From: Verrucomicrobiota bacterium | GTDB taxonomy: Bacteria; Verrucomicrobiota; Kiritimatiellia; Kiritimatiellales; Pontiellaceae | Direction of reading: 5' to 3' | DNA length: 64,000 nucleotides | NCBI GenBank assembly: GCA_024279685.1 | Contig: JAJRRI010000035.1 | Coordinates: forward strand, 3,081 to 67,080 | In this document: positions 14,307-52,330 of the stretch, one piece after another | Numbering within the stretch: the stretch's first letter is position 1 | Layout of the letters: the number at the start of each line of letters is the position of its first letter | Translations under genes and position numbers: made by a program | The notes under the pieces: generated by a model | The model's database searches: none | What the model saw: the letters and a program-made list of their open reading frames with translations, nothing else | Told to the model about the DNA's origin: nothing

Positions 14307-14309
14307 GTT

Positions 14310-17849: not shown

Positions 17850-18267
17850 GCCAGGCCTCCACTCGGTTCAGGAAGACTTTGGGCGACACATAACACATCT
17901 CTTCCGTCTCCATATCCACCGCTACCTGCAGGGTGTATCCGCGGGTGAGTCGCTCGCCCGTTTTTGCATCGTAGACGACATACTTTACCTTCAGGCGATT
18001 TTCCCATTCGGCGAGCTCGGCCGTCACTCGGATCTCGTGGTTGAAGGAGACCGGGCGGATATATTTAACGCGCACATCGATAATCGGCCAGACATAGCCC
18101 GACGCGCGCATGGCTAGATAGCTATATTCAATCTTTTCCAATAAAGCGTGACGAGCGGCCTCGAAAAATCGGAAATAATTTCCATGATAGATTACCCCCA
18201 TTGGGTCGGCATCTTGAAAAGAGGTCGTCAGCACCACTTCGGCTTGCAGGCGTTTTTCTGAGTTCAT
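17839..18267 (-). CDS. apeK: Acyl-CoA/ACP thioesterase, 4HBT-like (ApeK)
   Basis: FQDADPMGVIYHGNYFRFFE motif. ATG 18267 overlaps the ammonia-lyase stop (ATGA). Confidence 0.88.
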   Translation of the reverse strand: MNSEKRLQAEVVLTTSFQDADPMGVIYHGNYFRFFEAARHALLEKIEYSYLAMRASGYVWPIIDVRVKYIRPVSFNHEIRVTAELAEWENRLKVKYVVYDAKTGERLTRGYTLQVAVDMETEEMCYVSPKVFLNRVEAWHAR

Positions 18268-36425: not shown

Positions 36426-37199
36426 TTATAATCGTTGCAACGTTAAGCCTCCATCCACATAGATCACCTGCCCCGTCGCGTAGGGCAGGTCGCCCCGAGC
36501 CATCGCAGCCGCAAGTTTCCCGACATCTTCCGGTAGGCCCCATCGCTTGAGTACGCATAGATCGGTTTCAAAAATCAGCTGGTCATATTTTTCCGTTACC
36601 CCAGCGGTCATATCGGTTGTGATGATGCCGGGGCGAATTTCATAGACTGGAATTTCATATTCGCCAAGACGTGCGGCAAACAGCTCACTCATCATACCCA
36701 AACCTGCCTTGGAGATGCAGTAGTCGCCTCGATTGGGCGATACGACCGTTGCGGAAATTGAACCGATATTTATGATGCAGCCCGTAAAATAATCATCGGC
36801 TTGTCGTTGCTTAACCATCCAGTTGGCCACCGCCTGCGTTAGAAAATAGGGACCCTGAAGATTAATTTTTATGATCCACTCAAAACTCTCTTCGTCGGCC
36901 TCTAGAATATCGGCACGGGTCTTTGGTGCGACGCCCGCATTGTTGACGAGTACGTCGAGGCGGCCAAACCGCTCGTTAATCTCTTCGAGCATGGCCGCGC
37001 GGTCCTCGGCGGAGGAAACATCACCGGAGCAGTAAAGAACTTCAGCCCCTTTGTTTTCTAAGGACTGAATAGAATCAGCCACCTTCGAGTCCTCGCTGCG
37101 ACCGCTTAAAACAAGATTAAACCCGTCTGCTGCTAACTTTTCGCAAATGCCAAATCCAATACCTCGCCCGCCGCCGGTTACTAAGGCTACTTTTTTCAT
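36426..37199 (-). CDS. Short-chain dehydrogenase/reductase (sugar-acid SDR, often annotated 3-ketoacyl-ACP reductase)
   Basis: TGGGRGIG, NNAG, catalytic YCISK, EIRPGII, YATGQVIYVDGG. Confidence 0.88.
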   Translation of the reverse strand: MKKVALVTGGGRGIGFGICEKLAADGFNLVLSGRSEDSKVADSIQSLENKGAEVLYCSGDVSSAEDRAAMLEEINERFGRLDVLVNNAGVAPKTRADILEADEESFEWIIKINLQGPYFLTQAVANWMVKQRQADDYFTGCIINIGSISATVVSPNRGDYCISKAGLGMMSELFAARLGEYEIPVYEIRPGIITTDMTAGVTEKYDQLIFETDLCVLKRWGLPEDVGKLAAAMARGDLPYATGQVIYVDGGLTLQRL

Positions 37200-37217
37200 G
37201 ATTCGTTTTCCTTAAGG

Positions 37218-37766
37218 TTAAAAACGTTTTTGTTTACGTATATGTTGAATGATAATTCGGCAGTCTTCGAGGACTTCATAGGTATGCTCGAAAACCGCAT
37301 CAAACTGAAGGCATTCGCCCCTAGAGAGGACATGGTTTTCATACGGAAGATTAATTTTTAACGTTCCCTCTAATACCCAACAAATTTCAAAATCATCACG
37401 GTGCGCATCCGGATTGGACCGGGAGGCCCCTTTCGGGGCTTCCGCGTAGAAACATTTTGAGTTAGCAAACTCGATTTGTCGAAAATGAAAGTCCCCCGCA
37501 ATGCGCTCGCTCTCGTGCTGGCACTGCGCGGTTCTTGATTCCACCAGCGCTAGCATTTCAGAGGCTGTTAATCCAAAAGCGCGTGCCAAGCGAAACAGGG
37601 TTTTAAGTTCGGCAGTGGTCTGATTGCGCTCCAGTTTAGAGATAACCGCGGGCGAAATCCCGGTTCGCTCGGAAAGATCGGCAATCGTCATCTCCGCTCG
37701 TTTTCGCAAATCTCGCAAGACCGAAAAATTGTACATCTGCATACTGTCATCTCTCTCTCTAGCCAC
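37218..37766 (-). CDS. XRE-family HTH transcriptional regulator with C-terminal cupin sensor
   Basis: LRDLRKRAEMTIADLSERTGISPAVISKLERN HTH. Cupin HRDDFE..GTL..GECLQFDA..HTY. The true start may be ATG 37742 or 37736. Confidence 0.88.
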   Translation of the reverse strand: MARERDDSMQMYNFSVLRDLRKRAEMTIADLSERTGISPAVISKLERNQTTAELKTLFRLARAFGLTASEMLALVESRTAQCQHESERIAGDFHFRQIEFANSKCFYAEAPKGASRSNPDAHRDDFEICWVLEGTLKINLPYENHVLSRGECLQFDAVFEHTYEVLEDCRIIIQHIRKQKRF

Positions 37767-37859
37767 GTCTTATCTCCAATGAATGTTTGGATAATATAGG
37801 CCTTGACTATTTTCTTGTACAATATATTTTCACATTAAATATATCTATGGAGAAGTTTA

Positions 37860-39211
37860 ATGCGCATTGATACCCTTCTTACAACACAGAGTCTGCTGCC
37901 GGATCTTGAGCGATTTTGGACGGTTTCCGGCCAGAAAATTAACGACTTGAATCAAAACTATAACCCCGCTAAAGGCTCACCCGTTTTCACGGTTGAAGGG
38001 GAATACACGACTCGAGGTTGGACCGAATGGACGCAAGGTTTTCAGTATGGTGGGGAAATTCTGCAGTTCGATGCGACCGACGATGCCTCCTTTCTCGAAA
38101 TGGGCAAAAAAACACCGTCGAAAAGATGGCTCCGCACGTTAGTCACTTCGGGGTGCACGACCATGGATTTAACAATGTCAGCACCTACGGGAATCTACTG
38201 CGCCTGATGAATGAAGGGCGTATGCCTGAAAATGAATGGGAACGCAATTTTTACGAAATGGCGCTAAAGACTTCGGGATCCGTGCAGGCCCGTCGCTGGA
38301 CCAGCCTTCCTTCCGGAGGTTATATCTACTCCTTTAACGGGCCGCACTCCTTGTTTGCCGACACGATTCGCTCATTGCGCGCACTCGCCGTGGCTCATCA
38401 ATTGGGTCATTCCTTCATGGGTGAATGGGATGTAGAAACCTCTCTGCTGGCTCGATTGGTCCAACACGCCAAAACCCCCGCTGATTACGCGGTCTACTAC
38501 GGCGAGGGGCGCGATCACTATGATCTATGGGGTCGCACCGCACACGAAAGTATTTTTAATCTAAACGACGGAAACTATCGCTGTCCCAATTCACAGCAAG
38601 GCTTCTCGCCCTTCACCACGTGGACGCGCGGTCTCGCATGGATCATGCTCGGTGCTCCGGAGCAGCTTGAGTTCTTAAAGACCCTTGATGACGCCGAACT
38701 TGAACCGCTTGGCGGACGCGAATCCATCGAAGCCTTCCTGCTTAAAATGGCGAAATCCACCTGCGATTTTTACATCGAAAATACGGCCACCGATGGGATT
38801 CCCTATTGGGACACCGGCGCACTCAACACTCATCAACTCGGGGATAAGGTCTACGACCGTGAATCTGAACCGTTCAATTCTGCTGAACCCGTCGATTCTT
38901 CGGCTGCCGCCATCGGAGCGCAAGGGTTACTCCGCCTGGGTCATTATCTAAACGATGAGAAGTATATTCAAGCGGGGTTAACCGTCATGAAAACGTTGCT
39001 GAGCGATACATATCTCAGTCTCAACGAATCGCACCAAGGATTAATCCTCCACTCGGTTTATCACCGCCCCAACGGATGGGATCATATTCCGGAAGGTCAG
39101 TCCGTGCCGTGCGGCGAATCCAGCATGTGGGGCGACTACCATGCTCGCGAGGCCGCGCTCTATGTCCAGCGCCTTGCGAAAAATGAGCCATACCTAAAAT
39201 TTTATCTGTAA
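37860..39211 (+). pseudogene. GH88-like unsaturated glucuronyl hydrolase split by a one-base frameshift at A7 (38106-38112)
   Basis: The first frame gives WTEWTQGFQYG. The second gives HDHGFNN, FADT, WTRGLAW, DSSAAAIG and WGDYH. Adding one A joins them (EMGKKNTVEKMAPH) into a 450-aa ORF. This may be a sequencing error or a real frameshift. Confidence 0.8.
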
Positions 39212-39228
39212 CCCAAAAGGAAAGCATC

Positions 39229-39693
39229 ATGATCATTGGAGACCTCAATCAAATTAAAGGCCGCACCTATCCCGCCCAGCGACTCACCCAAAATCTCGTG
39301 GGAGGTGCCTCGCCCGTCCAGTGCGATAATTTTGCTATGGGTTTCGTGACGCTCGAACCCAACGGCGGTCAGGTTCCATGGCACAACCAGGAGCAAGAAG
39401 AAGTCTACTTCGTCGTCTCCGGGAAAACCGAAATGTGTCTCGGCGAAGAACGTTGCGAAATGAAAGCGGGCCAAATTGTTCATATTCCAACCGGCATCTT
39501 TCATCAAATGACCAATATCGGCACCGAACCCGCCACCTTTATCTATTGCTACGGCCCCGCAGGTGACGTTGCTCACTGGAGGCAGGAGTTGGCCGGAACC
39601 CTACCGAAGGAAGGGATCGATGTTCCCGCCTTGCCTGAAGGTGCACAGCCCCAATGTACCGAAATGCCCGAGGGCGGGCCCATTATAATATAG
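39229..39693 (+). CDS. Cupin-domain protein
   Basis: Cupin motifs PWHNQEQEEVYFVVSG and GQIVHIPTGIFHQMTN. Confidence 0.88.
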   Translation: MIIGDLNQIKGRTYPAQRLTQNLVGGASPVQCDNFAMGFVTLEPNGGQVPWHNQEQEEVYFVVSGKTEMCLGEERCEMKAGQIVHIPTGIFHQMTNIGTEPATFIYCYGPAGDVAHWRQELAGTLPKEGIDVPALPEGAQPQCTEMPEGGPIII

Positions 39694-39758
39694 GCATTGG
39701 GCCAGCGAGCTTGAGCCACTGATCACTTAAAATTTAAAAATTGAATCGGAGATTCATC

Positions 39759-40934
39759 ATGGAAATAAAACGGATTGGAATCATTATGAACGGCGTGACG
39801 GGGCGCATGGGAACCAACCAGCACCTCGCACGATCCATCAGCGAAATCATCAAGCAAGGGGGAATCAAGGTAGGTAACGACTTAGTCATCATGCCTGATC
39901 CAATCCTAACGGGTCGGCGCGAGCATGCCCTTAAGGAGCTCGCGGAAAAATATGGGAACGACGCCCGTGGCGAGGCCTATAAATACACCACTGACGTGCA
40001 GGGCGCACTGGACGGGAAATATGGCGAATACGAAATATTTTTCGACGCCTCGGGTACGCTCCAACGCGCGGGATTCATCGAGCAAGCTGTGAAAGCCGGC
40101 AAAGCGATCTACTGCGAAAAACCAACGGCGGTTAAAACGAAGGAAGCCGTTCGTCTGGCCAAACTCGTTGATGATGCGGGTCTGAAAAATGGAGTGGTGC
40201 AAGACAAGTTGTGGCTCCCCGGATTTCGCAAAATAAAGATGCTCAAGGAGCAGGGTTTCTTCGGGAAAATCCTTTCCGTCAAAGGCGATTTTGGCTATTG
40301 GGTTTTCACCGGCATGGATTACGATCAGCCCGCGCAACGCCCAAGCTGGAACTATCGTTCCGAAGACGGTGGCGGCATGATGATTGACATGTTTTGTCAC
40401 TGGCGCTACGTGATCGACAACGTGTTCGGCCCCATCAAAAGTCTTGTGGCCTGTGGGGCAATCGATTTGCCCGAACGGCGAGCCGAAGACGGCACTCCAT
40501 TCGACTGCACGGCCGACGATTCGGCCTATGCCATGTTCCTCCTCGAAGATGGAACTATGGTTCAGTTCAATTCTTCATGGTGTACCCGCGTACGGCGCGA
40601 CGATCTGCTGACGATACACGTCGATGGGGTAAAGGGTTCAGCCGTTGCTGGCCTACGTGAAGTCAAAACTCAGAGCGCGGCCAATACGCCAAAACCGACT
40701 TGGAATCCTGACATCAAGCAACCCATCGATTTTCTGGGTGGCTGGCAGGATGTACCCAATAATATTGAATACGAGAACGCCTTCAAAATCCAATGGGAAA
40801 TGTTCATCAAGCACGTCGTGCTCGATGAAGCATGGAACTACTCGTTGATGGAAGGGGCCAAAGGCGTTCAGCTTGCCGAGCTGGGTATGGAGAGCTGGAA
40901 AGAACGCAAGTGGGTTGATGTCCCGAGCTTATAG
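39759..40934 (+). CDS. Gfo/Idh/MocA family oxidoreductase
   Basis: IGIIMNGVTGRMG, IYCEKP, VVQDKLWLPG, GGGMMIDMFCHW. Confidence 0.9.
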   Translation: MEIKRIGIIMNGVTGRMGTNQHLARSISEIIKQGGIKVGNDLVIMPDPILTGRREHALKELAEKYGNDARGEAYKYTTDVQGALDGKYGEYEIFFDASGTLQRAGFIEQAVKAGKAIYCEKPTAVKTKEAVRLAKLVDDAGLKNGVVQDKLWLPGFRKIKMLKEQGFFGKILSVKGDFGYWVFTGMDYDQPAQRPSWNYRSEDGGGMMIDMFCHWRYVIDNVFGPIKSLVACGAIDLPERRAEDGTPFDCTADDSAYAMFLLEDGTMVQFNSSWCTRVRRDDLLTIHVDGVKGSAVAGLREVKTQSAANTPKPTWNPDIKQPIDFLGGWQDVPNNIEYENAFKIQWEMFIKHVVLDEAWNYSLMEGAKGVQLAELGMESWKERKWVDVPSL

Positions 40935-41014
40935 GATGGATTATCTATAGATTACGCAGGGGTTCACTCTTTTTTCTTTCATCGGTGTCCCCTGCGAAAT
41001 TGGAAGCGGACAGG

Positions 41015-41647
41015 CTACTCGGCCTCTTCCGCCTTGGCGAGCGCCGCAACAACTTGGGCCGTGATGACACTCCATTGCTGGTCGGCGATCTGTTGTTGAG
41101 TGGCGAGCCACGAGCCGCCGATAGAACTGACGGCCGGCAGCGAAAGATAGTCGTTCATATTTCCAAGTCCCACTCCGCCCGTTGGGCAGAATTTTATTCC
41201 AAGCGAGGCATACGGAGCGGTTAGATTCTTGAGCATTCCCACTCCTCCCGCGGCACCGGCTGGGAAAAACTTGAGCAACTTACAGTCCAGCGCAAGCCCC
41301 TGTTCAATTTCCGAGGGCGTCATGACGCCGGGAATGAAGAGCGTTTCCGCCGCTTGGAAAAATTTAACGGTATCGGGGTTGAGCCCCGGAGCAAGGCCAA
41401 AGTCGACCCCGGTATCCACGCACATTTGAGCTTGGTCGCGGGTGACCACCGTGCCGCCTCCTAAAAGCATTTCGGGAAAGGTTTTCTTGATCCGCGCAAG
41501 TGCTTCGGCAGCGGCGGCGGTGCGGCAGGTTATTTCAATCACATCCATCCCGCCTTTCAGTAGGGCTTCAGCCAGCGGCTCAGCATCGTTGGCGTTGTCG
41601 ATCACAATGACCGGGATCACCGGGCGCTTTAAAATTTTATGTAGCAT
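41015..41647 (-). CDS. eda: KDPG/KHG aldolase
   Basis: VIPVIVI, IEITCRT, GGGTV, PGVMTPSE, LKFFPA, FCPTGGV, IGGSW. Confidence 0.95.
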   Translation of the reverse strand: MLHKILKRPVIPVIVIDNANDAEPLAEALLKGGMDVIEITCRTAAAAEALARIKKTFPEMLLGGGTVVTRDQAQMCVDTGVDFGLAPGLNPDTVKFFQAAETLFIPGVMTPSEIEQGLALDCKLLKFFPAGAAGGVGMLKNLTAPYASLGIKFCPTGGVGLGNMNDYLSLPAVSSIGGSWLATQQQIADQQWSVITAQVVAALAKAEEAE

Positions 41648-41661
41648 ATTTTCTTTTCCTT

Positions 41662-42762
41662 TTAGCGGTCTACGCGCGCGCCGGAACCGGCGACGACTTT
41701 TTTAACTTCTGCGAGCGAGACCATGGTGGTATCGCCCGGCGTGGTCATGGCCAGCGCACCGTGTGCCGCGCCGTATTCGATGGCTAATTGTGGGTCGTTC
41801 AATTCCATGAGGCCGTAGATAAATCCGGAGGCAAAGCTGTCCCCGCCGCCGACGCGATCCATGATTTCAAGCTCAGGGCGATGCGTTGCGGTATAGAATT
41901 CTCCGTCGATCCAGCACATGGCCCCCCAGTCGTTGGAGGTGGCCGTTCTAACCCCGCGCATCGTGGTGGCTGTGGCCTTAAAATTGGGAAACTCGGCGAC
42001 GGCTTGGGCGATCATCCGTTGAAATGAGCCGACATCGAGATCCGTCAGATTTTCATCCGAGCCTTCGATTTCGAAACCAAGACAGGCGGTGAAGTCTTCT
42101 TCATTTCCCATCATTACGTCGACGTATTTTGCGATCTCGCGGTTTATTTCTTGGCATTTTTCAAGACCGCCGAATCCTTTCCAAAGCGATGGGCGGTAGT
42201 TGAGGTCGTACGAAATTAGAGTTCCATGTTTTTTAGCCGCTTGAGCGGCCTCGATCACGACTGCGCTGGTGCTTTCAGAAAGCGCCGCAAAGATCCCGCC
42301 GGTATGGAACCACCGTACGCCGAGCGTGCCGAAGATTTCTTCCCAGTCGATGTCGCCCGGTTTTAACTGCGAGGCCGCTGTGTTTCCCCGGTCGGAGCAG
42401 CCCACCGCTCCGCGAATACCAAAACCGCGTTCGGTAAAATTCATCCCGTTGCGAACGATTCGGCCAATGCCGTCGTAGTCCATCCATTTGACCAGCGAAG
42501 TATCCACTCCGCCCTGTAAAATAAAATCCTCCATGAGCAGGCCGATCTCATTTTTTGCAAAAGCAGTAGCCACTGCCGCACGCTGTCCGAAACAACGACG
42601 TAGACCCCGGGCTACGTTATATTCGCCTCCGCCCTCCCAAGCACGGAATTCGCGTGCGGTACGGATTCGACCTTCGCCCGGATCAAGACGAAGCATGACC
42701 TCGCCCAAAGATAAAATATCATAACGGCAGTCCGCCGCCGATTTAACATTCAAAACACTCAT
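41662..42762 (-). CDS. kdgK: PfkB-family sugar kinase, 2-keto-3-deoxygluconate kinase type
   Basis: SLGEVMLRL, GGGEYNVA, SYDLNYRPSLW, DRVGGGDSFASG. Adjacent to eda. Confidence 0.88.
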   Translation of the reverse strand: MSVLNVKSAADCRYDILSLGEVMLRLDPGEGRIRTAREFRAWEGGGEYNVARGLRRCFGQRAAVATAFAKNEIGLLMEDFILQGGVDTSLVKWMDYDGIGRIVRNGMNFTERGFGIRGAVGCSDRGNTAASQLKPGDIDWEEIFGTLGVRWFHTGGIFAALSESTSAVVIEAAQAAKKHGTLISYDLNYRPSLWKGFGGLEKCQEINREIAKYVDVMMGNEEDFTACLGFEIEGSDENLTDLDVGSFQRMIAQAVAEFPNFKATATTMRGVRTATSNDWGAMCWIDGEFYTATHRPELEIMDRVGGGDSFASGFIYGLMELNDPQLAIEYGAAHGALAMTTPGDTTMVSLAEVKKVVAGSGARVDR

Positions 42763-42774
42763 TCAAATCTCCTC

Positions 42775-43227
42775 TTATTCAACCGATAATAGATAAAAAA
42801 TCAGACTTAATAAATAGCCCGTTAGGCCAATCATCAGCAAAACCATGGCTACCCGATAAAATGTGGTGCGTAAATTTCTCTGGCGCAGGTGTAAAATAAG
42901 CGTCTGCTCTATGTCCGCCGCTCGCCACGCCGTCATCCAACGAAGGCGCAATGGACCTGCCACCAGCGCCATCACTGAAAACAGCACGAAAATAAGACCG
43001 AAACCAATTAAAAAACGGCTGTAGACATTCGACTGCGCCATGCGCGGGCCAGAAAATCCGGTAATCGTGAGGCAGATGGTGGCCAATCCCAATAGCATTT
43101 GGGCGCGGGTCTGCAAGAGGGAGAAGCCTTCTTTCAGGACGTTGAACAGTTTAGCATAGTCGTCTGTTCCATGGATTTCTTTTAAGAAGTCCAGTTCTTC
43201 TTCAGGGGTTAGCTTTTTAAGACTCAT
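42775..43227 (-). CDS. Hypothetical three-TM membrane protein
   Basis: ATG 43227 with GGAGA RBS, three hydrophobic segments, apparently co-transcribed with kdgK-eda. Confidence 0.7.
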   Translation of the reverse strand: MSLKKLTPEEELDFLKEIHGTDDYAKLFNVLKEGFSLLQTRAQMLLGLATICLTITGFSGPRMAQSNVYSRFLIGFGLIFVLFSVMALVAGPLRLRWMTAWRAADIEQTLILHLRQRNLRTTFYRVAMVLLMIGLTGYLLSLIFYLLSVE

Positions 43228-43307
43228 ATCCGTTTCTCCAACAAACTCCGAGTAGATGCCTTTAATCGTTTTCTCAATCGAGGTAGAGAGTATCAAATCG
43301 AAATCAC

Positions 43308-43405: not shown

Positions 43406-45121
43406 TCAGTCTGCATTTCGATTCATTTTACGACCTAAAGAAAAGAGAACCGATCCGACCAATAGGATGAGGGTCGCCACGGAGGCAATGTAGCCTCGGG
43501 CGGAGGCGGGATTGGGGAGCAGTAGAAAGAGCGCAACAAATCCACCCAGGAAAAGAGCCAATATGCCGATCAGCGTCAACTGTTGCGCATCGTTAGCCTC
43601 GCCCACCTCTTCTTCGAAGTTGACGGGGGTGTGTATCCGAGTGAAAAATTCGGCTAATTTTTCGCGGGAGGCTACCGAGGTTTTGTTCCAGAAGAGGCGG
43701 GTGGAGATGAAGGCAAGGAATCCGATCACGCTATTGACGAGGGCTTGCCGGAACGAGGGAAGTTCTATGGCCGTTCCTACGACTGAACCCACCATGCCCG
43801 CACCGAAGCAGACCCATCCAGACCACATCGGCGTCTTGCGGATAAAGTAACCAAAGAACAGGGGCATGAATAACGGGGTAATCAGAAGAGCGGAGAAACG
43901 GAAGATGAGTTCAAAGATTCCCTGTCCCTCGGCGGTGGAGGCGAAATAGAGGGCGCAAGAGACCAGACCGATGGCGAGTAGGGAGGTGAATACGCGGCCA
44001 AGCCGGAGCAGGAAACGATGGTCGGTGCGCGGGGTGCGGCCACAGAGCCGAGCTAACGCGGGATAGGCGTTTTTTACGAAAAGAGCGGCATTGGCATTAA
44101 GCGAAGTGTCCATGGTACTCATCTGGGCGGAAAACATGGCCACCACCATGAGGGGAACAAAGCCAAAGGGAAGAAGTTTCGTGGCCATGAAGGCATAGGA
44201 AATATCGCCCGGGTTTGGCACATCCATCTGAGCAAGCTCGTCGGCATACATCAAACGAGCCACCATCGGCTGAATAAAATAGACGACCAGACCGAGTAAT
44301 CCCGCCACCGTGCAGAGTAGGGCGGCCTTCCGCGCTTCGCGCCCATCTTTGCAGGAGAAAAAACGCTGGCCGCCCTGCATACCTAAAATGCCGTAGACCT
44401 GCATGATGCCTACCCCTATGAGCCACTCAATTCCGTAGAGTCCATCGGATCGGCCCGTGGTCACCATCCGAAAGTCATTCTCCAGGCCCGCGCTGCGGAT
44501 CGCCTCCAAAAACCCGGAAATACCGCCGATATGCTTTAGGCAGAGTACGGCCATAAGCGTGGCCATCGAAAAGAGGACTAGGCTTTGAAGGAAGTCGGCA
44601 GCTAACACCGCCCAGTTCCCGCCGGTTAGGGTGTAGAAAAGAACGATCATCCCCAGCGCAAGAATGGTCAATTTGATCGGGAATCCAAAGACACTATGTG
44701 TGAACAGCGCAAGCATGAAGAGCCCGATCCCGCCGAAGATCACCAGGCAGATAATGTTGTAATAGGTGAAACACTGCTGAAACGACACGCCGAAGCGGTC
44801 CCGTACAATTTCGGCAAAGGTCGTTACTCGCGCCTGCCGGTACCAAGCGGCGACCCCTAACACGAGGACAATTCCACAGAGGGAATTGACGATGTAGATC
44901 CACCAGATGCTGAACCCTGACCGGTACGCAACCCCGGCGTTGGCAATGAAGGTCTGCGTGCTAATACTGCTCATCAGAAGGCTCATGCCTACCATCCACC
45001 AGGACGAGCGCGAGCCTGCGCGGAAAAAATCATCTTCGTCGCGGTTCAGCCGTTTGAAGACCATCCCAATTGACGCAAGGAAAACAAAGTAGAACCCAAT
45101 TACGATATAGTTAAGAAGCAT
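43406..45121 (-). CDS. Sodium:solute symporter (SSS) family sugar transporter
   Basis: FFRAG, WWMVGMSL, YTLTGGNWAVLAADFLQ, AQMSTMDTSLN, multiple TM helices. Confidence 0.92.
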   Translation of the reverse strand: MLLNYIVIGFYFVFLASIGMVFKRLNRDEDDFFRAGSRSSWWMVGMSLLMSSISTQTFIANAGVAYRSGFSIWWIYIVNSLCGIVLVLGVAAWYRQARVTTFAEIVRDRFGVSFQQCFTYYNIICLVIFGGIGLFMLALFTHSVFGFPIKLTILALGMIVLFYTLTGGNWAVLAADFLQSLVLFSMATLMAVLCLKHIGGISGFLEAIRSAGLENDFRMVTTGRSDGLYGIEWLIGVGIMQVYGILGMQGGQRFFSCKDGREARKAALLCTVAGLLGLVVYFIQPMVARLMYADELAQMDVPNPGDISYAFMATKLLPFGFVPLMVVAMFSAQMSTMDTSLNANAALFVKNAYPALARLCGRTPRTDHRFLLRLGRVFTSLLAIGLVSCALYFASTAEGQGIFELIFRFSALLITPLFMPLFFGYFIRKTPMWSGWVCFGAGMVGSVVGTAIELPSFRQALVNSVIGFLAFISTRLFWNKTSVASREKLAEFFTRIHTPVNFEEEVGEANDAQQLTLIGILALFLGGFVALFLLLPNPASARGYIASVATLILLVGSVLFSLGRKMNRNAD

Positions 45122-45414: not shown

Positions 45415-45534
45415 ACTTCGTCCTATCACTAAGACGCCAAACCTGTCCAACGGCACGTCATAACGGAGGAAATGAACCTTCTATTTAACCCACTTAGAAG
45501 GCTCATTCATCTACTTAATAAATCATGGAGAATT

Positions 45535-46380
45535 ATGACAGAACAACCTAAATTTAAATGGGGTATTTCCACGCTGGGGTGTCATGAATTCACTCTGGAA
45601 GAAACCTGCAAGCTGGCCGAGCGCTACGATATCCACACGTTTGAAATCCGTTCGCTTGAAGATCGACAGGATTTGGCGAAATATTTCGATGAAACCTATC
45701 CAGATCCCGGAAAAATAATAGAACTTCTCGGGCGGTATAAACAATCCATTGTGGCTCTCAATAGCTCCTTCAAGCTGATCGGAACGCAGGAAGAAGACCG
45801 CGAGGAGCTCTTGGAATTTGCCCGTTGGGCCGAACGATTAAACGTACCCTTCATTCGTACATTCGGCGGCGGAAGTATGGATCGGCCTTTTCGTCAGGCT
45901 GAAATAAATGAGGCGGCGGAAAACCTCCGCTGGTGGCATCAAATTCGTCAAGAAAATGGATGGCAGACCCGATTGGCTCTTGAAACCCATGATGGGTTCA
46001 GTAGCGGGGCGCGTTGCCTCGAACTTCAGGCCTGCTGTGAAACTCCGTTGGATCTAATTTGGGACACTCACCACAGCTGGAAGATAGGAGGAGAAACTCC
46101 GCAAGAAACTTGGAATCATATTGCACCACTTGTCCGGCATGTGCACATTAAAGACAGCGTTTCAGTTCCGGGAATCCATCTTCCCTATACCTATGTTGTT
46201 CCCGGTACGGGAGAGTTCCCTGCGAAGGAAACGCTCTCTCTTTTAAGAGAAAATAACTACACGGGTGTCGTCAGTTTGGAATGGGAACGCAAATGGCACC
46301 CTGATTTAGTGCCGCTGGCCGAAGCTCTGGAGGCTCTCGTTTCCAGCGGCTGGAAATCGGATGCCTTCGCTATCGCATAA
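45535..46380 (+). CDS. Sugar phosphate isomerase/epimerase (xylose isomerase-like TIM barrel)
   Basis: ISTLGC, metal-binding LETHD, WDTHH, HVHIKD, SLEWERKWHP. Confidence 0.88.
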   Translation: MTEQPKFKWGISTLGCHEFTLEETCKLAERYDIHTFEIRSLEDRQDLAKYFDETYPDPGKIIELLGRYKQSIVALNSSFKLIGTQEEDREELLEFARWAERLNVPFIRTFGGGSMDRPFRQAEINEAAENLRWWHQIRQENGWQTRLALETHDGFSSGARCLELQACCETPLDLIWDTHHSWKIGGETPQETWNHIAPLVRHVHIKDSVSVPGIHLPYTYVVPGTGEFPAKETLSLLRENNYTGVVSLEWERKWHPDLVPLAEALEALVSSGWKSDAFAIA

Positions 46381-46420
46381 GGATGACCCAACCCGTTTAG
46401 TATTAAAAAGGAAGTATCCT

Positions 46421-47671
46421 ATGCCCACTCGACCTCTAGAGGAAAATATCTTGAAATTGGCCATGATCGGCTGCGGTGGCTATGCCGGAGACTGGATTGA
46501 TCGACTGGCCGAAATACCTGATCTCTGCGAGTTGATCGCCGTTACTACGCTTGATCCGGACGACCCTGCTGCGCAGGCCTGTCGAGCCAAAGGTTTGCTC
46601 GTCTATAACAGCGTAGATGAATTACTTGACCACCTTTCGCCGGAAACTTGCTCTGCTGTAATTGTTCCAACAAGTATTGATAGCCATTATGAATACGCCT
46701 TCAAGGTGGTTGAACGCGGGTTTCATGTCCTCCTCGAAAAGCCTCCTGTTTCGGTCATTCAAGATCTCGATCGGCTAATTAAACTCCAACGCGAAAGTGG
46801 GAAGTTTATTGCCATCACCTTTCAGCATCTCTACAGCACGGGCGTACAGCGGCTTAAGACCCGATTGGCTTCCGGCGAGTTCGGCGCAATTAAGACCGTC
46901 CGAGCTCATGCCGTGTGGCCGCGACCGGAATCCTATTTTTCTCGGAGCTTTTGGAGCGGCCGCATTCAGATGGATGGGAGGTGGGTGCTCGATGGAACTC
47001 TTGGAAATCCGCTGGCTCACCTCATGGCCGAGGCGCTTTATTTAGCCACTCCAGATTTGGGGATGGCCATTCCCGTTCACTTGGAAGCGGAGCTTTATCA
47101 GACCAATAACATCGAAAGCGAGGATACCAGCGTGGTTCGGATTAAAACCAAAAAGGGCGTATCCGTCTTTTACAGCGCAAGCCTCTGCGGCACCAAGCTT
47201 ATGCCCATCTGTTGCGAAATCGAGACCGAGCGAGCTGTCATTCGCCTGACCGATCACGCTCAACTGGAAATCACCTACTCTGATGGACGTAAGGAGCTTC
47301 AGGACGATCCAGGGCGTAACGATCACTCCACCGATCGCTGTTTAATGATCGAGGCGATTATCCGAAAATTGTTGCGGAATGAGCGCCCGATGATCACCGT
47401 CGAAGAGTGCCGTCCTTACATGCTGGCATGGAACGGCGCTTTCGAATCTGCGCAACGCCCGGTCGCTGTTCCCTTTTCCAAAAAAGAGATTGAGGCGGGA
47501 ATCATGCGCTTTATCCCTGGGATCGGCGAGCTAGGCCAAAAGGCCGTTAAAGAGCAAAGTCTGTTCTCTGAATTAGGTGTAGAATGGGCCGTGGCCGGAA
47601 CCCCCGTCGACCTTACCGAATACACCCACTTCCCATCGATCAATCCAGAATGGATTGATCGATCTCCCTGA
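46421..47671 (+). CDS. Gfo/Idh/MocA family oxidoreductase
   Basis: MIGCGGY, PTSIDSH, VLLEKPP, DGTLGNPLAH. Confidence 0.88.
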   Translation: MPTRPLEENILKLAMIGCGGYAGDWIDRLAEIPDLCELIAVTTLDPDDPAAQACRAKGLLVYNSVDELLDHLSPETCSAVIVPTSIDSHYEYAFKVVERGFHVLLEKPPVSVIQDLDRLIKLQRESGKFIAITFQHLYSTGVQRLKTRLASGEFGAIKTVRAHAVWPRPESYFSRSFWSGRIQMDGRWVLDGTLGNPLAHLMAEALYLATPDLGMAIPVHLEAELYQTNNIESEDTSVVRIKTKKGVSVFYSASLCGTKLMPICCEIETERAVIRLTDHAQLEITYSDGRKELQDDPGRNDHSTDRCLMIEAIIRKLLRNERPMITVEECRPYMLAWNGAFESAQRPVAVPFSKKEIEAGIMRFIPGIGELGQKAVKEQSLFSELGVEWAVAGTPVDLTEYTHFPSINPEWIDRSP

Positions 47672-47703: not shown

Positions 47704-48294
47704 CTACGTTTCGAGTAAGACGAGTAGGGAGCGCGAGCCATGAGCACCGATCACGAGGCACTGTTCTACATCGGCAGTTTTGGATGGTCCAGCGATGAAT
47801 CCGGCCCATGGTTGGGCGGTGTGATCCAGTCCCAAACTGGCGTAAGCCTCGTGGAGATTATGGAGTAGAGTGCTGGCTTTAACGACTAGAACCAAGTGTT
47901 GGGTGAGAAAAAATAAGCTGCGTTGGGGAAGCTGCTTCTCTTCAACCCAGATCGCCCCGTTTTCAGCAACCCCAAGCGTGCCACGGGTAATAAGCAAGTC
48001 GAGTTTGTCGCCGTCGTGAGGAGTGCTAAATTCGCGAGCACTTAGACTGGGAATAGGCAACTCATCACCGATCGTATGGAATATAGTTTTTGCGTCTGCG
48101 TAGTGTTGATCAATCAGCGGCTTAATCTCTTCCACGGCATTAATTTCGGTGCAGATTCCTCCAACGGATTCGACGGCTTGCTTGAACTGGGTGCTGATGT
48201 CCTCGTAGCGAATGCCAAACGTAGGGGCGGAGGGCAAATCAATGGAGGCCGGCTTATGCGCACGGACGGAGGCGAGGATGCTTTCGCGGCTCAT
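47704..48294 (-). CDS. lutC: Lactate utilization protein C (LUD domain)
   Basis: SRESILA, GVAENGAIW, FIAGPSKTADVEQ..GAHG. Confidence 0.9.
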   Translation of the reverse strand: MSRESILASVRAHKPASIDLPSAPTFGIRYEDISTQFKQAVESVGGICTEINAVEEIKPLIDQHYADAKTIFHTIGDELPIPSLSAREFSTPHDGDKLDLLITRGTLGVAENGAIWVEEKQLPQRSLFFLTQHLVLVVKASTLLHNLHEAYASLGLDHTAQPWAGFIAGPSKTADVEQCLVIGAHGSRSLLVLLET

Positions 48295-49673
48295 GAGTTT
48301 TTATCCCTGTTTTTTGTGTACCACTCTTGAAAACTTTCTGGCGGGGCGGGCGGAAGATCGCGTTGGCGCCCCCAAATATTGAGCGGGTTGTAAAGAAAGA
48401 CCCGTGGAAGTTTCATGGCGAGGCGAGCGCACTTTCCTGCGAGTTTATAGCGCTGTGGAGACTGGAGAACCCAGCTTGTAAGTTTCATGGCCAGACGCTT
48501 TCCGGGATTGAGCTTTCCAGCTTTGACCACTTCTTCGCGCCACGCGAGCAGTTGGTGATGCAGGTCGATTTTCACCGGACAAACATCGGTGCACGATCCG
48601 CAGAGGGTTGATGCGAAAGGTAGACTTTTATGAGCCGCTAAGTCCTTATTTGGGGCTAGTACGGAGCCAATCGGACCTGGAATGACATAGCCGTAGCTGT
48701 GTCCTCCACTGCGCCTGTAAATGGGGCAGGTATTCATGCAAGCTCCGCAGCGAATACAGGAGAGCGATCGCCAAAATTTCTTGCGGGATAAAAGTTCGCT
48801 GCGCCCATTGTCGACGATGACGACATGCATTTCGCTGCCCTTTTGGGGGCCGTTAAAGTGAGAGCTGTAGGTGGTGATGGGCTGGCCGGTCGCCGAGCGT
48901 GCGAGTAGACGGAGAAAGACACCGAGGTTTTCTTGTTTGGGGATAATTTTTTCCAGACCCATGCAGGCGATGTGAATGGGGGGCAAGACGGTTCCGAGAT
49001 CCGCATTACCTTCATTGGTGCACACGACTACGCTACCGGTTTCGGCAACGGCAAAATTAACTCCTGTAATACCAGCCTCTGCATCGAGGAATTTTTTACG
49101 CAAATCAAGACGCGCAGATTCCGTGAGGTACTTCGGATCGGAGGCGCCCTTTTTTGTGCCCATATGCTCATGAAAAAGCTCACCAATTTCTTCTTTTTTT
49201 ACATGAATGGCCGGCAAGACGATATGGCTGGGCGGCTCATTACGTAATTGCACAATCCGCTCGCCAAGATCCGTGTCTATGACCGTTATGCCGCGTTTTT
49301 CTAAAAAGGGGTTGAGATGGCACTCTTCTGTGAGCATGGATTTGCTTTTAACCACCTCGCGAACCTGGTGCGTTTTTAAAATATCGTAGACGATTTGATT
49401 GTGCTCATCGCCTGTGGCCGCCCAATGAATGGTAATGCCTTTGGCTTGGGCGTTGCGCTCAAACTCTTCGAGGTACTCATCGAGGTTAGAGAGGCTGTGC
49501 GCTTTGATTTGCGCCGCAGTATCGCGGAGTTGTTCCCACTCGGGGAGACTGGCGGCGGCTTTGTCGCGCTTTTGACGCACAAACCAAAGGGCCTTATTAT
49601 GCCATGTAGTTCGCGCTTGATCAGAAACAAAGGCGGCGGCTTTTTTGGGGTGATGGGTATGCATTTGTGTCAT
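48291..49673 (-). CDS. lutB: Lactate utilization FeS protein B
   Basis: VVKSKSMLTEE, DTDLGE, PSHIVLPAIH, CTNEGN, CIRCGACMNTCP, STLCGSCTDVCPV. Confidence 0.95.
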   Translation of the reverse strand: MTQMHTHHPKKAAAFVSDQARTTWHNKALWFVRQKRDKAAASLPEWEQLRDTAAQIKAHSLSNLDEYLEEFERNAQAKGITIHWAATGDEHNQIVYDILKTHQVREVVKSKSMLTEECHLNPFLEKRGITVIDTDLGERIVQLRNEPPSHIVLPAIHVKKEEIGELFHEHMGTKKGASDPKYLTESARLDLRKKFLDAEAGITGVNFAVAETGSVVVCTNEGNADLGTVLPPIHIACMGLEKIIPKQENLGVFLRLLARSATGQPITTYSSHFNGPQKGSEMHVVIVDNGRSELLSRKKFWRSLSCIRCGACMNTCPIYRRSGGHSYGYVIPGPIGSVLAPNKDLAAHKSLPFASTLCGSCTDVCPVKIDLHHQLLAWREEVVKAGKLNPGKRLAMKLTSWVLQSPQRYKLAGKCARLAMKLPRVFLYNPLNIWGRQRDLPPAPPESFQEWYTKNRDKNS

Positions 49674-49681
49674 GGCCTACT

Positions 49682-50434
49682 CTATTTAATCGTGCCCGCT
49701 AAAATTTCCGCGATATGAACCACCCGCAACGGATCACCATTGCGTGTGATAAGACCGTTTAAGTGCATGAGGCAGGACATATCGATGCCGGTCATGATTT
49801 GTGCACCTGCTTGGAGATGGTCGGCGATACGGTCTTTGCCCATCTGACAGGAGATCGCCTCTTCAGCAATTGCAAAAGTGCCGCCAAAACCACAGCATTC
49901 GTCTTTGCGATCCAGCTCAACGAGTTCGATGCCTTTAACCATGGCGAGCAGTTGGGTGACTTTTGAAAAAGGTGCGTCCATGCGTTCGCTTGACTTGGCG
50001 AGACGTAATTCACGCAGACCGTGGCAACTTTGGTGCAAGCCCACTCGATAAGGTAGGCTGGCATTGATTTCTTTGATTTGGATGACATCCACTAAAAATT
50101 CGCAAAGTTCCATCGTTCGGGTGCTAACATGGTCGTAGCCCTCGCAGTGTGAGGCAACATCTTTGTAGTGGTTGCGTACCATGGACGTGCAGCTGCCGGA
50201 GGGGCAGACGATATAATCGTAGGGTTTAAACGTTTTAATGAAATGCTCGGCAACGGGTTTTACATCGTCGCTACAGCCCGTATTACCCATAGGTTGCCCG
50301 CAGCAGGTCTGCGCAAGTGGGTAATCAACATCCAGATTAAGCTGTTGGAGTAAGGTCAGTGTGGCTTTAGCTACATGAGGGTACAGCTGATCAACATAAC
50401 AGGGGATAAATAAACCAATTTTCATAGGACTCAC
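49682..50434 (-). CDS. lutA: Lactate utilization protein A (two CCG domains)
   Basis: LFIPCYVD, QTCCGQP, PSGSC, HQSCHG, ECCGFGGTF, DMSCLMH. Confidence 0.95.
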   Translation of the reverse strand: MSPMKIGLFIPCYVDQLYPHVAKATLTLLQQLNLDVDYPLAQTCCGQPMGNTGCSDDVKPVAEHFIKTFKPYDYIVCPSGSCTSMVRNHYKDVASHCEGYDHVSTRTMELCEFLVDVIQIKEINASLPYRVGLHQSCHGLRELRLAKSSERMDAPFSKVTQLLAMVKGIELVELDRKDECCGFGGTFAIAEEAISCQMGKDRIADHLQAGAQIMTGIDMSCLMHLNGLITRNGDPLRVVHIAEILAGTIK

Positions 50435-50661: not shown

Positions 50662-52047
50662 ATGGTAACGGTAAATAAAAAAGCCGATGGCTATCGAGGT
50701 GTCTGGTGTATGGACCAGGCTTCGGATGATGAATATGTTTATAAATATAGTGGGGGGCTCGGGACGTATTGTGCCAAACACCAACCTTTTGCTGTGTACT
50801 CGCCGGAGTCCAAGAAAACATTTTTCTGCTATGGGGGGGCTGCAAAGGAGAATCATCAGCAACTTCTTCACATGGTGTCTTACTATGACCATGCAACTGG
50901 AATGGTGCCAAGGCCCACTTTGTTGTTGGACAAGCAGACCGATGACGCTCACGATAATCCGATTATTTCGCTCGATGAAGAGGGTTACATTTGGATATTT
51001 TCTACCTCACATGGAACCGGGCGACCTTCCTATATTCACCGTAGCGCTAAGCCCTATGACATCAATGAGTTTGAACTCGTTCCCGCAACACGCCTTGTTG
51101 ACGGAAAAAGGGTTCCTTTCGACAACTTCTCGTATATGCAGGTCTGGAATATTCCCCAGCGCGGTTTTGTCGCGTTCTTGACCCACTATAACGACCCCGC
51201 CATTCGCACCAATTTCTTCATAGAAAGCCGAGATGGGATTGATTGGGGAGAATGGCAACGGCTTGCGGGTATAGAACAGGGGCACTATCAAATCAGTGCA
51301 TCCCTCGCCGGGAAGATAGCGAGCGCCTGTAATTTTCACCCCTCCGAAAAAGGAAATGGCCTGAACTGGCGGACCAATTTATATTACATGGAGTCTTTGG
51401 ATTTTGGCGGGACATGGATCTCAATCGAGGGCAAGCCGCTGAAGTGCCCGCTCATTGATGTTAAAAATCCAGCCTTGGTTCATGATTATCAAAAAGAAGG
51501 ACTGAACGTTTACCTCAAAGATATCCGACTGGACGATGCCGGCCGGCCGATTATTTTATATTTGACCAGCGGGGGCTATGAATCAGGTCCTGAAAATGCG
51601 CCTCGCACTTGGACGACCGCGCATTGGAACGGAATGAATTGGGATGTCAGGCCTGCCATGGAATCGGATAGCAATTATGATATGGGTTCGCTCTATGTTG
51701 AAGGCGATGGGATTTGGCGAATCATCGCGCCCACCGAGACAGGACCCCAGCCCTTCAACCCTGGAGGTGAAGTGGCGATGTGGATGACCGAAGATTATGG
51801 AATGACTTGGAACCGCATTAAGAACCTCACATCAGATAGCGAGTGCAACCATACCTTCGTGCGGCGCCCGGTGAATGCCCATCCCGATTTCTACGCTCTA
51901 TGGGCAGATGGCCATGCTCGGAAACCGTCCTCCTCTCGGATCTATTTCTGCGACAAGGAGGGAAATGTCAGCATGCTTCCGGAAGAGATGGATGCTGATT
52001 TTGTTCAGCCGACACGAGTCGCCTCCACAGATAAATTAAGCGATTGA
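50662..52047 (+). CDS. BNR-4 repeat beta-propeller protein, possible polysaccharide/oligosaccharide lyase
   Basis: YSGGLGTYCAKH, DDAHDNP..LDEEGYIWIF..HG, and Asp-box-like YMESLDFGGTW and WMTEDYGMTW. No signal peptide from ATG 50662. Confidence 0.75.
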   Translation: MVTVNKKADGYRGVWCMDQASDDEYVYKYSGGLGTYCAKHQPFAVYSPESKKTFFCYGGAAKENHQQLLHMVSYYDHATGMVPRPTLLLDKQTDDAHDNPIISLDEEGYIWIFSTSHGTGRPSYIHRSAKPYDINEFELVPATRLVDGKRVPFDNFSYMQVWNIPQRGFVAFLTHYNDPAIRTNFFIESRDGIDWGEWQRLAGIEQGHYQISASLAGKIASACNFHPSEKGNGLNWRTNLYYMESLDFGGTWISIEGKPLKCPLIDVKNPALVHDYQKEGLNVYLKDIRLDDAGRPIILYLTSGGYESGPENAPRTWTTAHWNGMNWDVRPAMESDSNYDMGSLYVEGDGIWRIIAPTETGPQPFNPGGEVAMWMTEDYGMTWNRIKNLTSDSECNHTFVRRPVNAHPDFYALWADGHARKPSSSRIYFCDKEGNVSMLPEEMDADFVQPTRVASTDKLSD

Positions 52048-52165
52048 CCGAGAGGTTTCTGGGGGCAGTATTTTTTGAATGACCCTGGAGTTTTGAACGT
52101 TTATTCTAACTATTTTCCATACGATTGAGCGTGCATTAATAGGGTACCTCGCAAGGAGAGAAAAA

Positions 52166-52330
52166 ATGATAAAGACAGAAGATAGAATGAAATCTTTTCT
52201 GCTCTCTTTGAGTAGGGAGAGTATTGTGTGGCCGGTACGTGCAGGCGACAGAGCTCCAGTGGCTCCCCGTTCTATGAACGGATCTGTTCATTTGATCTCT
52301 ATGATCCAACTCCCCTCCGTAATATCATGA
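52166..52330 (+). CDS. Small 54-aa ORF coupled to the symporter start (not in the ORF track)
   Basis: AAGGAG RBS before ATG 52166. Stop TGA 52328-52330 overlaps ATG 52327 of the symporter. No recognisable domain. Confidence 0.35.
   Translation: MIKTEDRMKSFLLSLSRESIVWPVRAGDRAPVAPRSMNGSVHLISMIQLPSVIS

Follow-up and report, generated by a model that had tools for sequence, protein, structure and literature searches.

Introduction

Pectin, ulvan, alginate, glycosaminoglycans, gum-type exudates and other polymers of uronic acids make up a large pool of carbon, and genome-based models judge the capacity for uronate use by the presence of KduI/KduD or UxaC/UxuA. Here we describe a gene cluster on a 64,000-nucleotide stretch of a Verrucomicrobiota metagenome-assembled genome (MAG) of the family Pontiellaceae, from a marine, Pontiella-like bacterium (GenBank assembly GCA_024279685.1, contig JAJRRI010000035.1, positions 3,081 to 67,080; the whole stretch is called the window below). 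The cluster is headed by a GH88-like (alpha/alpha)6 protein, here named GH88L, and an earlier reading of the DNA by itself, the original prediction, had proposed it as a KduI-independent pathway for unsaturated uronates.

Among the closest described systems, the pair DhuI and DhuD, known from Streptococcus and other Bacillota, takes the place of KduI and KduD downstream of the unsaturated glucuronyl hydrolase UGL without being homologous to them; DhuI belongs to the RpiB/LacAB family and DhuD is a short-chain dehydrogenase/reductase (SDR) (PMC12838403). Isomerase–reductase pairs for DHU or DKI, names of the 4-deoxy-5-keto-uronate, have therefore arisen more than once. In alginate users, the DEH(U) reductase FlRed, a single SDR, converts the erythro form of 4-deoxy-5-keto-uronate to 2-keto-3-deoxygluconate (KDG) without an isomerase, and it also oxidises DEHU to keto-deoxy-glucarate (PMC8563752). 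For UGL itself, D149, H193, D88 and F46 have been described as functional residues and W42 as a stacking residue (PMC4528949).

Our verdict, reached by sequence comparison, is that the cluster is probably a real variant of unsaturated-uronate catabolism; KduI-independent routes as such are already known. We estimate at roughly 55% the probability that it is the version found in the Planctomycetes–Verrucomicrobia–Chlamydiae (PVC) group of a widespread cytoplasmic module through which 4,5-unsaturated uronates, or an enol-ether sugar acid very much like them, enter the Entner-Doudoroff KDG branch. Literature searches covering the cluster, Pontiella GH88, alternative DKI routes and the catabolism of 4-O-methyl-glucuronate and hexenuronate found no publication on the cluster.

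Organization of the locus

The genes of the window were annotated by listing open reading frames (ORFs) and scanning them against Pfam and NCBIfam. Those considered here are as follows, in window coordinates.

36426-37199, minus strand: SDR oxidoreductase, 257 aa (Pfam adh_short_C2, 4e-53; NF009386)
37218-37766, minus strand: XRE-type helix-turn-helix plus cupin transcription regulator, 182 aa (Pfam HTH_3, 1e-13; Cupin_2, 1e-6)
37860-39211, plus strand: GH88-like (alpha/alpha)6 protein GH88L, frameshifted (intact homologues 450 aa)
39229-39693, plus strand: single-domain cupin, 154 aa (Pfam Cupin_2, 2e-18)
39741-40934, plus strand: ORF of a Gfo/Idh/MocA oxidoreductase (Gfo), ~391 aa from a probable ATG start at 39759 (PF22725, PF02894)
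41015-41647, minus strand: KDPG/KHG aldolase Eda, 210 aa (PF01081, 4e-59; TIGR01182)
41662-42762, minus strand: PfkB-family sugar-acid kinase of the KDG-kinase type, 366 aa (PfkB, 5e-20)
42775-43230, minus strand: small membrane protein with hydrophobic C-terminal segments, ~151 aa from a Met at 43230
43406-45121, minus strand: SSF sodium:solute symporter and candidate importer, 571 aa (PF00474, 7e-37; TIGR00813, 157 bits)
50662-52047, plus strand: cytoplasmic, uronate-lyase-like BNR_4 beta-propeller, a weakly linked outlier (PF15892)

GH88L, the cupin and Gfo follow one another in this order on the plus strand, with the XRE-cupin regulator and the SDR divergent from them. The convergent minus-strand operon is transcribed in the order SSF symporter, small membrane protein, PfkB kinase, Eda. 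Each gene named in the original prediction (SDR, XRE-cupin, GH88-like, cupin, Gfo, kinase and eda) was found where it had been placed, and the annotation of the window bore out the claim that kduI, uxaC and uxuA are missing from it.

GH88L is distantly related to GH88 enzymes

The Bacillus UGL in the PDB was matched by GH88L at E 3e-5 when a single sequence was used and at 6e-11 with a family profile, and the 397-codon ORF 38018-39211, which holds most of the window gene, matches no Pfam family. A precomputed PF07470 match is carried by few members of the family, and in NCBI the orthologue from Chondrinema bears the name 'glycoside hydrolase family 88 protein'. An AlphaFold2 (AF2) model of a homologue 92% identical to GH88L (pLDDT 68.8, pTM 0.80) has an (alpha/alpha)6-barrel fold like that of the UGL structures. 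Its best Foldseek matches are the GH88 UGLs 3wiw, 1vd5, 2fv0, 3vxd and 2zzr (E 2e-8 to 1e-6, TM 0.53-0.74 overall and 0.55-0.74 for the first three), Streptococcus UGLs among them, followed by GH105 enzymes. When aligned with HMMER, UGL residues W42, F46, D88 and H193 correspond to W57, F61, D101 and H229 of GH88L, all four of which are invariant in the family. An attempt to place D149 by aligning the middle of GH88L to UGL gave only spurious antibody matches and was set aside. Judged from sequence, GH88L is not a canonical GH88 enzyme and is only distantly GH88-like: it appears as a distinct, longer branch of the GH88 superfamily in which the vinyl-ether hydration site is largely retained.

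With one genome taken per species, a pattern scan gave at least 600 matches, of which 599 were confirmed, placing GH88L in at least 599 species genomes; the best 80 are all at least 63% identical. The matches listed fall in the Planctomycetota, Verrucomicrobiota, Kiritimatiellota, Bacteroidota, Acidobacteriota, Balneolota, Fibrobacteria, Lentisphaerota and Rhodothermota, with one actinomycete. In the 50%-identity library, GH88L consists essentially of one full-length cluster accompanied by fragments and wrong-frame products; the library 'representatives' below 55% identity were mostly fragments or wrong-frame translations from GC-rich contigs and were dropped from the alignment. The maximum-likelihood tree of GH88L mostly follows phyla, with one change each for Acidobacteriota and Balneolota and four for Bacteroidota, which suggests that the high identity is mostly a matter of strong constraint and not of rampant transfer. 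The window protein lies in a clade (support 99) with Pontiella desulfatans and Rhodopirellula/Rubripirellula, a grouping that indicates transfer between marine Pontiella and the Rhodopirellula/Rubripirellula lineages.

Conserved gene neighbourhood of GH88L

ORFs were called around 82 GH88L loci and clustered, and the recurrent clusters were annotated; the counts given here are from the 50 loci flanked by 5 kb or more on each side. The most tightly tied partner of GH88L is the SDR, present in 42 of the 50 loci, followed by Gfo in 32, a 276-aa xylose-isomerase-like TIM barrel in 20 and the cupin in 11. Gfo is present in all 31 loci that have the cupin or the TIM barrel, and a single locus has Gfo with neither. 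The SDR is the only partner in 3/50 loci, none of the partner genes is present in 5/50, and several loci (Rubripirellula, Rhodopirellula JB044 and others) have GH88L and the SDR without Gfo and without an isomerase. From these counts the unit is seen to have two parts, a core of GH88L and SDR and a pair of isomerase and Gfo; as the isomerase, Gfo has interchangeably the monocupin (PVC, Acidobacteriota, Balneolota) or the TIM barrel (Bacteroidota, some Opitutales).

An arrangement identical to that of the window (SDR, XRE, GH88L, cupin and Gfo, at 85-90% identity) is found in Pontiella desulfatans. One locus (L040) reads XRE-GH88L-cupin-Gfo-SDR-eda-kinase on one strand, another (L070) XRE-GH88L-SDR-eda-kinase, and Balneolaceae loci read SDR-eda-kinase-UxaC-cupin-Gfo-GH88L-SDR-DASS. 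The transporters next to the cluster belong, by sequence-family assignment, to organic-acid and solute importer families: MFS proteins with weak matches to aromatic-acid/sialate symporters (AAHS-like), PanF-like SSS proteins and a DASS anion symporter. The original prediction had the cupin, SDR and Gfo filling the gap between the hydrolase and the KDG kinase. That part of it which concerns linkage has held up, in that a unit of hydrolase-like gene, cupin, Gfo and SDR is conserved across phyla and that Eda, a KDG-type kinase and UxaC are co-directional or adjacent in several genomes, but the cupin has no match to KdgF or KduI and the SDR none that is specific to KduD.

OYE-type flavoproteins occur in 10/50 loci, seven of which also have a different Gfo-type enzyme. 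In several Spirosomataceae loci an OYE-type flavoprotein of ~480 aa and this different Gfo replace the isomerase/Gfo pair; the alternative Gfo has a weak match to a glycoside 3-dehydrogenase model (178 bits against a cut-off of 750). The Spirosomataceae version of the pathway may include a C=C reduction step.

Identities of the partner proteins

The 154-aa cupin matches only the generic Cupin_2 family and, weakly, other cupin families, and does not match KduI, a bicupin of ~280 aa (PF04962). Its best PDB match is 5zbe (3e-8), with oxalate decarboxylases next; no chain named KdgF was among its 46 PDB matches at E <= 0.01, the presence of KdgF in that library being unchecked. The motifs WHNQxQEE and FHQ are conserved, and the protein is probably a metal-dependent isomerase.

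Gfo belongs to the Gfo/Idh/MocA family by its matches to PF22725 (GFO_IDH_MocA_C3, 68.5 bits) and PF02894 (GFO_IDH_MocA_C, 46.7 bits), and its GVTGRMG and YCEKP (EKP) motifs are conserved across 47 orthologues. It matches PDB 3oqb over its full length at E 4e-141, a structural-genomics entry named only 'Oxidoreductase', and is weakly similar to levoglucosan dehydrogenase and to the C-glycoside 3-oxidase DgpA. The SDR has the motifs TGGGRGIG, NNAG and S...YxxxK, all conserved, and an Arg after strand beta-2 that hints at use of NADP(H). It scores 349 bits against NF009386 (PRK12745; cut-off 250), and falls below the cut-offs of the KduD models NF005390 (134.5 bits against 369) and TIGR01832 (121 bits against 338.85); its best PDB matches, 4da9 and 4one, are both without known function. 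An orthologue of the XRE-cupin regulator stands at the same position in Pontiella desulfatans and occurs in 8/50 loci, and the protein is likely a local regulator of the cluster.

Eda scores 214.7 bits against TIGR01182, above the curated cut-off of 156.05. The best match of the kinase is the kinase half of the aldolase-kinase fusion model NF041633 (266 bits, below cut-off), and models for KDG and KDGal kinases give 139 and 76 bits, below their cut-offs of 440 and 400; its position next to Eda supports an assignment as KDG kinase. The window kinase is 63-73% identical to kinases adjacent to GH88L in three loci of three other phyla (L040, L059 and L070). The MAG encodes three PfkB paralogues, this kinase among them, and has a second eda-kinase pair. 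The small membrane protein at 42775-43230 matched no Pfam family; its look-alikes are small unnamed or PycTM-like membrane proteins, and Pontiella desulfatans has a homologue of 80% identity close to its copy of the cluster.

The Gfo/isomerase pair occurs without GH88L

When plasmids were searched for Gfo orthologues by tblastn, 70 records were found at 40-57% identity, in Sinorhizobium, Rhizobium, Azospirillum, Erwinia, Paracoccus, Arthrobacter (pAO1) and Haloferax; GH88L was present on one plasmid only among those searched, in Chondrinema. At 47-57% identity, Gfo orthologues are found in proteobacterial, actinobacterial and haloarchaeal sugar-acid operons. In the plasmids of Nitratireductor, Erwinia and Pseudoroseomonas, Gfo stands beside an orthologous TIM barrel and a protein of the DHDPS family; the TIM barrel of these operons is 41-43% identical to that of the Bacteroidota, and some of the operons also include an enolase-like protein, a glycerate kinase or transporters of the TTT or MFS type. 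The Paenarthrobacter/Arthrobacter plasmid pAO1 has the order AldH-Gfo-DHDPS-glycerate kinase, without a TIM partner. Neither GH88L nor the SDR was found in these four plasmid operons (Nitratireductor, Erwinia, Pseudoroseomonas and pAO1). On pHV3 of Haloferax volcanii (373220-374368), a Gfo orthologue of 51% identity lies beside GH28.

The association of Gfo and TIM barrel with DHDPS, enolase-like and glycerate-kinase genes places the pair in keto-deoxy sugar-acid metabolism. We infer that isomerase and Gfo form an autonomous acid-sugar unit that would deliver a 2-keto-3-deoxy acid to an aldolase; such a unit fits a role like that of KduI/KduD and argues against 3-keto-glycoside chemistry. The plasmid Gfo-DHDPS operons are an uncharacterised acid-sugar route in their own right.

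Two further observations concern Gfo proteins. The neighbours of Gfo on pHV3 also include an alpha/beta hydrolase, a DUF362 protein, a second Gfo and IclR regulators. Directly beyond the symporter, the window has another xylose-isomerase-like TIM barrel paired with another Gfo/Idh/MocA protein (45472-47671), and the Gfo of this second pair has no sequence kinship to that of the cluster.

Genome content and a possible source of the substrate

The MAG comprises 2.69 Mb in 178 contigs and is 93.9% complete. A check of the genome for kduI and kduD, which the original prediction had called for, agreed with it: KduI was not detected in a PF04962 scan and no KduD scored above cut-off, the best match to the KduD models being FabG of the fab cluster, below cut-off. 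UxuA and canonical GH88/GH105 (PF07470) were likewise not found in the MAG scans. Scans of the MAG for PL8 and for heparinase II/III-type lyases gave no matches; neither did that for PL7, which was run without a positive control and says little. UxaC is encoded on a contig other than that of the window, C125, where it adjoins genes for a LarA-like protein (Lar_N), 6-phosphogluconate dehydrogenase and a PfkB kinase, the group spanning 13888-19401. In a genome without detected UxuA, this UxaC-LarA-like locus may represent a mannonate/gluconate epimerase route that takes hexuronates into the pentose-phosphate pathway.

The BNR_4 protein has no detected signal peptide. Its family profile matches the PL25 ulvan lyase 5uam at 4e-6, and an AF2 model (pLDDT 80) is matched by Foldseek to 5uam (TM 0.70, E 3e-17) and further to 7esk/7esl, 5mum and 6byp (PL42 Rha-GlcA lyases, former GH145 proteins and PL24). 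The modelled seven-bladed propeller resembles in fold PL25 and PL42, lyases with a catalytic His/Tyr/Arg set. Directly after the BNR_4 gene is a gene for an SSS-type transporter of ~770 aa (the two occupying window 50662-54630), and Fodinibius has a BNR_4 homologue of 61% identity next to its cluster, the two separated by a lactate permease. In the sample from its own phylum, 10 of 12 BNR_4 carriers also have GH88L (Fisher p 9e-8). The association was not reproduced in the Planctomycetota (2/10, p 0.6), and BNR_4 is absent from a Dyadobacter and a Rhodopirellula that carry GH88L; on these grounds we rejected it as the dedicated upstream enzyme. By its modelled fold it may be a lineage-specific, weak lead to a source of unsaturated uronates.

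The LutABC lactate-utilisation genes lie at window 47704-50434, between the cluster and the BNR_4 gene. Together with the lactate permease of Fodinibius, they hint at a deoxy-sugar (rhamnose or fucose) co-substrate. In one genome of the phylum (G146), GH88L and the BNR_4 homologue are both broken, perhaps by joint decay.

Proposed pathway

The folds, family memberships, UGL-site residues, gene linkage and genomic absences described above are best accounted for by the following scheme, in which the identity of the substrate, the reactions from GH88L to KDG, their sequence and the cofactors used are proposed by analogy. A small acidic substrate would be imported by the SSF symporter. GH88L would hydrate its C4=C5 vinyl ether in the manner of UGL, giving a 4-deoxy-5-keto-uronate (DKI or DEH). 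The cupin and Gfo would act as an isomerase/reductase pair leading to KDG, analogous but not homologous to KduI/KduD or DhuI/DhuD, and the SDR, probably NADPH-linked, would reduce a keto or aldehyde intermediate, for example in a step like that of DEH reductase; the formation of KDG could be due to the pair, to the SDR or to both. The PfkB kinase and Eda would then yield pyruvate and glyceraldehyde-3-phosphate; these are family-level assignments, that of Eda above its curated cut-off.

Evidence against the scheme and alternative explanations

A number of observations weigh against this uronate scheme. GH88L falls below the cut-off of PF07470 (E 0.044, 13.2 bits; cut-off 26.6), and the equivalent of UGL D149 cannot be aligned by sequence, the invariant D168 being a positional guess. 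Of the GH88-like hydrolase originally predicted, the fold of GH88 and four of the UGL residues stand, but the family cut-off is missed and the lead gene of the cluster is frameshifted in this genome. The cupin matches neither KdgF nor KduI, and the resemblance of the SDR to KduD, DhuD and DEH reductases does not exceed its resemblance to FabG. Conversion of DKI to KDG needs only one net reduction, and the scheme does not account for there being two oxidoreductases. Genes for lyases, SusC/D and second-sugar pathways showed no conservation around the GH88L loci examined, and GH88L is absent from all four sampled genomes of the same genus.

Nor did GH88L behave as a phyletic replacement of KduI. 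In a sample of 151 genomes of the phylum with completeness of at least 90%, of which 24 have GH88L and 45 a PF04962 protein, the latter was present in 11/24 GH88L carriers and 34/127 non-carriers, strong KduI-type matches in 4/24 and 19/127, and one family has both GH88L and a PF04962 protein in most members. By this lack of complementarity a replacement of KduI is not supported phyletically, and room is left for a substrate or isomer other than that of KduI.

In the window the GH88L gene is divided between two ORFs, 37860-38207 with the N-terminal 84 codons and 38018-39211 with the remainder. It breaks at a run of seven A (38106-38112), whereas the conserved GKKNTVEK of the intact 450-aa homologues requires A8, and the frame switch is located at ATGGGCAAAAAAACACC, a -1 frameshift by deletion of one base. 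Intact homologues, 76-92% identical to the window protein, align end to end over both pieces. GH88L in this MAG is either part of an inactive or decaying module or carries a homopolymer error of the assembly; homopolymer indels are a classic assembly or sequencing error, and slippage on A-runs can partly restore frame.

We put at about even odds the explanation that the deletion in the A8 tract is real and that the pathway is non-functional here, as a recently acquired, decaying island, whatever the role of the family. The odds are set by the absence of the gene from the four same-genus genomes, by broken copies in two other genomes of the phylum, one split (G005) and one with two stops (G146, the genome in which the BNR_4 gene is also broken), and by the frameshift having been the sole one noticed among the window genes examined, an impression from genes that were not checked systematically and which, if it holds, speaks against an error-prone assembly. 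The clade that mixes Pontiella and Rhodopirellula, with its suggestion of horizontal transfer, also favours a recently acquired island. Set against a dead locus are the single lesion, of a kind so typical of assembly or sequencing error, the ~92% identity of both halves to the nearest intact homologue with no further stops, and the intactness of every neighbouring gene.

A less probable explanation, which we consider unlikely, is that the substrate is some other small acid, an enol ether or keto compound not derived from polysaccharide lyases, such as a pyranone-type acid or a uronate derivative that has been oxidised or methylated. GH88L would be a monomer hydratase, and two reductions in succession, by Gfo and the SDR, would lead to KDG. 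Such a substrate would account for the two oxidoreductases where DKI needs one reduction, for transporters of organic-acid and solute families (AAHS-like MFS, PanF-like SSS and DASS) on the side of the cluster, for the lack of conserved lyase, SusC/D and second-sugar genes nearby and for the missing complementarity with KduI. It would also suit the OYE-type ene-reductase and other Gfo that the Spirosomataceae carry instead of the isomerase/Gfo pair, and a conservation of GH88L (at least 63% across phyla among the best 80 matches) that is unusually high for a glycosidase. Against it, the UGL residues that bind and hydrate an unsaturated uronate are conserved, and UxaC, GH28 and the lyase-like BNR_4 lie beside the cluster or Gfo in some genomes; no result points to a specific alternative compound.

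Pairs of Gfo with a xylose-isomerase-like TIM barrel typify the LgdA/LgdB and DgpA/B/C systems, and the four enzyme types of the cluster map one to one onto a glycoside cleavage by oxidation, elimination, hydration and reduction, as in the levoglucosan and 3-keto-glycoside routes of which such pairs are a hallmark: Gfo, with its weak similarity to levoglucosan dehydrogenase and DgpA, would oxidise a ring hydroxyl, the aglycone would leave in an elimination by the cupin or TIM barrel, and the glycal-type enol ether so formed would be hydrated by GH88L before the SDR reduces the ketone. This is very improbable, as GH88L and SDR occur without Gfo or isomerase in several loci, Gfo and TIM are found with DHDPS-family and enolase-like genes in sugar-acid operons of Proteobacteria that lack GH88L and SDR, the genes that recur downstream encode KDG kinase and Eda and not hexose-entry enzymes, and the uronate-site residues of UGL are conserved.

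Implications

Under the uronate scheme, the cluster could contribute two new functions, a deeply conserved GH88 subfamily acting in the cytoplasm as a hydratase of unsaturated uronates that are free or carry minimal substitution, and a third non-homologous isomerase-reductase pair for 4-deoxy-5-keto-uronate, made up of a monocupin or TIM barrel with Gfo, that also feeds DHDPS-type aldolases in Proteobacteria, Actinobacteria and possibly haloarchaea. We advance the two together only tentatively, at odds rather below even. If both hold, at least 599 species, of soil and sea, would share a major unannotated route for uronate carbon. The genes of the module are now annotated 'hypothetical', '3-ketoacyl-ACP reductase' or 'predicted dehydrogenase' in PVC bacteria, Bacteroidota, Acidobacteriota and others, and capacities for uronate use would accordingly be under-called in a systematic way. 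Once its steps are assigned, the known enzyme repertoire would gain a new GH88 subfamily and, probably, a new pair of isomerase and reductase. For this MAG the meaning is more modest: the gene set is present, and its first gene is frameshifted.

Comparison with known systems

The classical route runs from UGL (GH88) or GH105 through KduI, KduD and KdgK to Eda. Like it, the cluster has a first enzyme of the (alpha/alpha)6 type, in which the UGL residues W42, F46, D88 and H193 are conserved, a cupin-fold protein and an SDR adjacent to it, and a KDG-type kinase and KDPG aldolase downstream. It differs in that GH88L is a separate subfamily of ~450 aa, the cupin is a monocupin of 154 aa and the SDR fails the KduD models, and in having an extra Gfo tightly coupled to the isomerase and no conserved lyase or polysaccharide-utilisation context. 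This Gfo has a clear full-length orthologue of known structure in PDB 3OQB (E 4e-141), whose function is unassigned. Compared with DhuI/DhuD, the isomerase of the cluster is a cupin or a xylose-isomerase-like TIM barrel in place of an RpiB/LacAB protein, and the constant partner is a Gfo/Idh/MocA protein and not an SDR. In alginate users the monomer comes from exolytic lyases and KdgF and not from a GH88-type enzyme, and the window SDR has no specific similarity to known DEH reductases; the single-SDR route of FlRed nevertheless resembles the minimal GH88L+SDR loci, and its oxidative branch resembles the DHDPS-linked Gfo operons of Proteobacteria.

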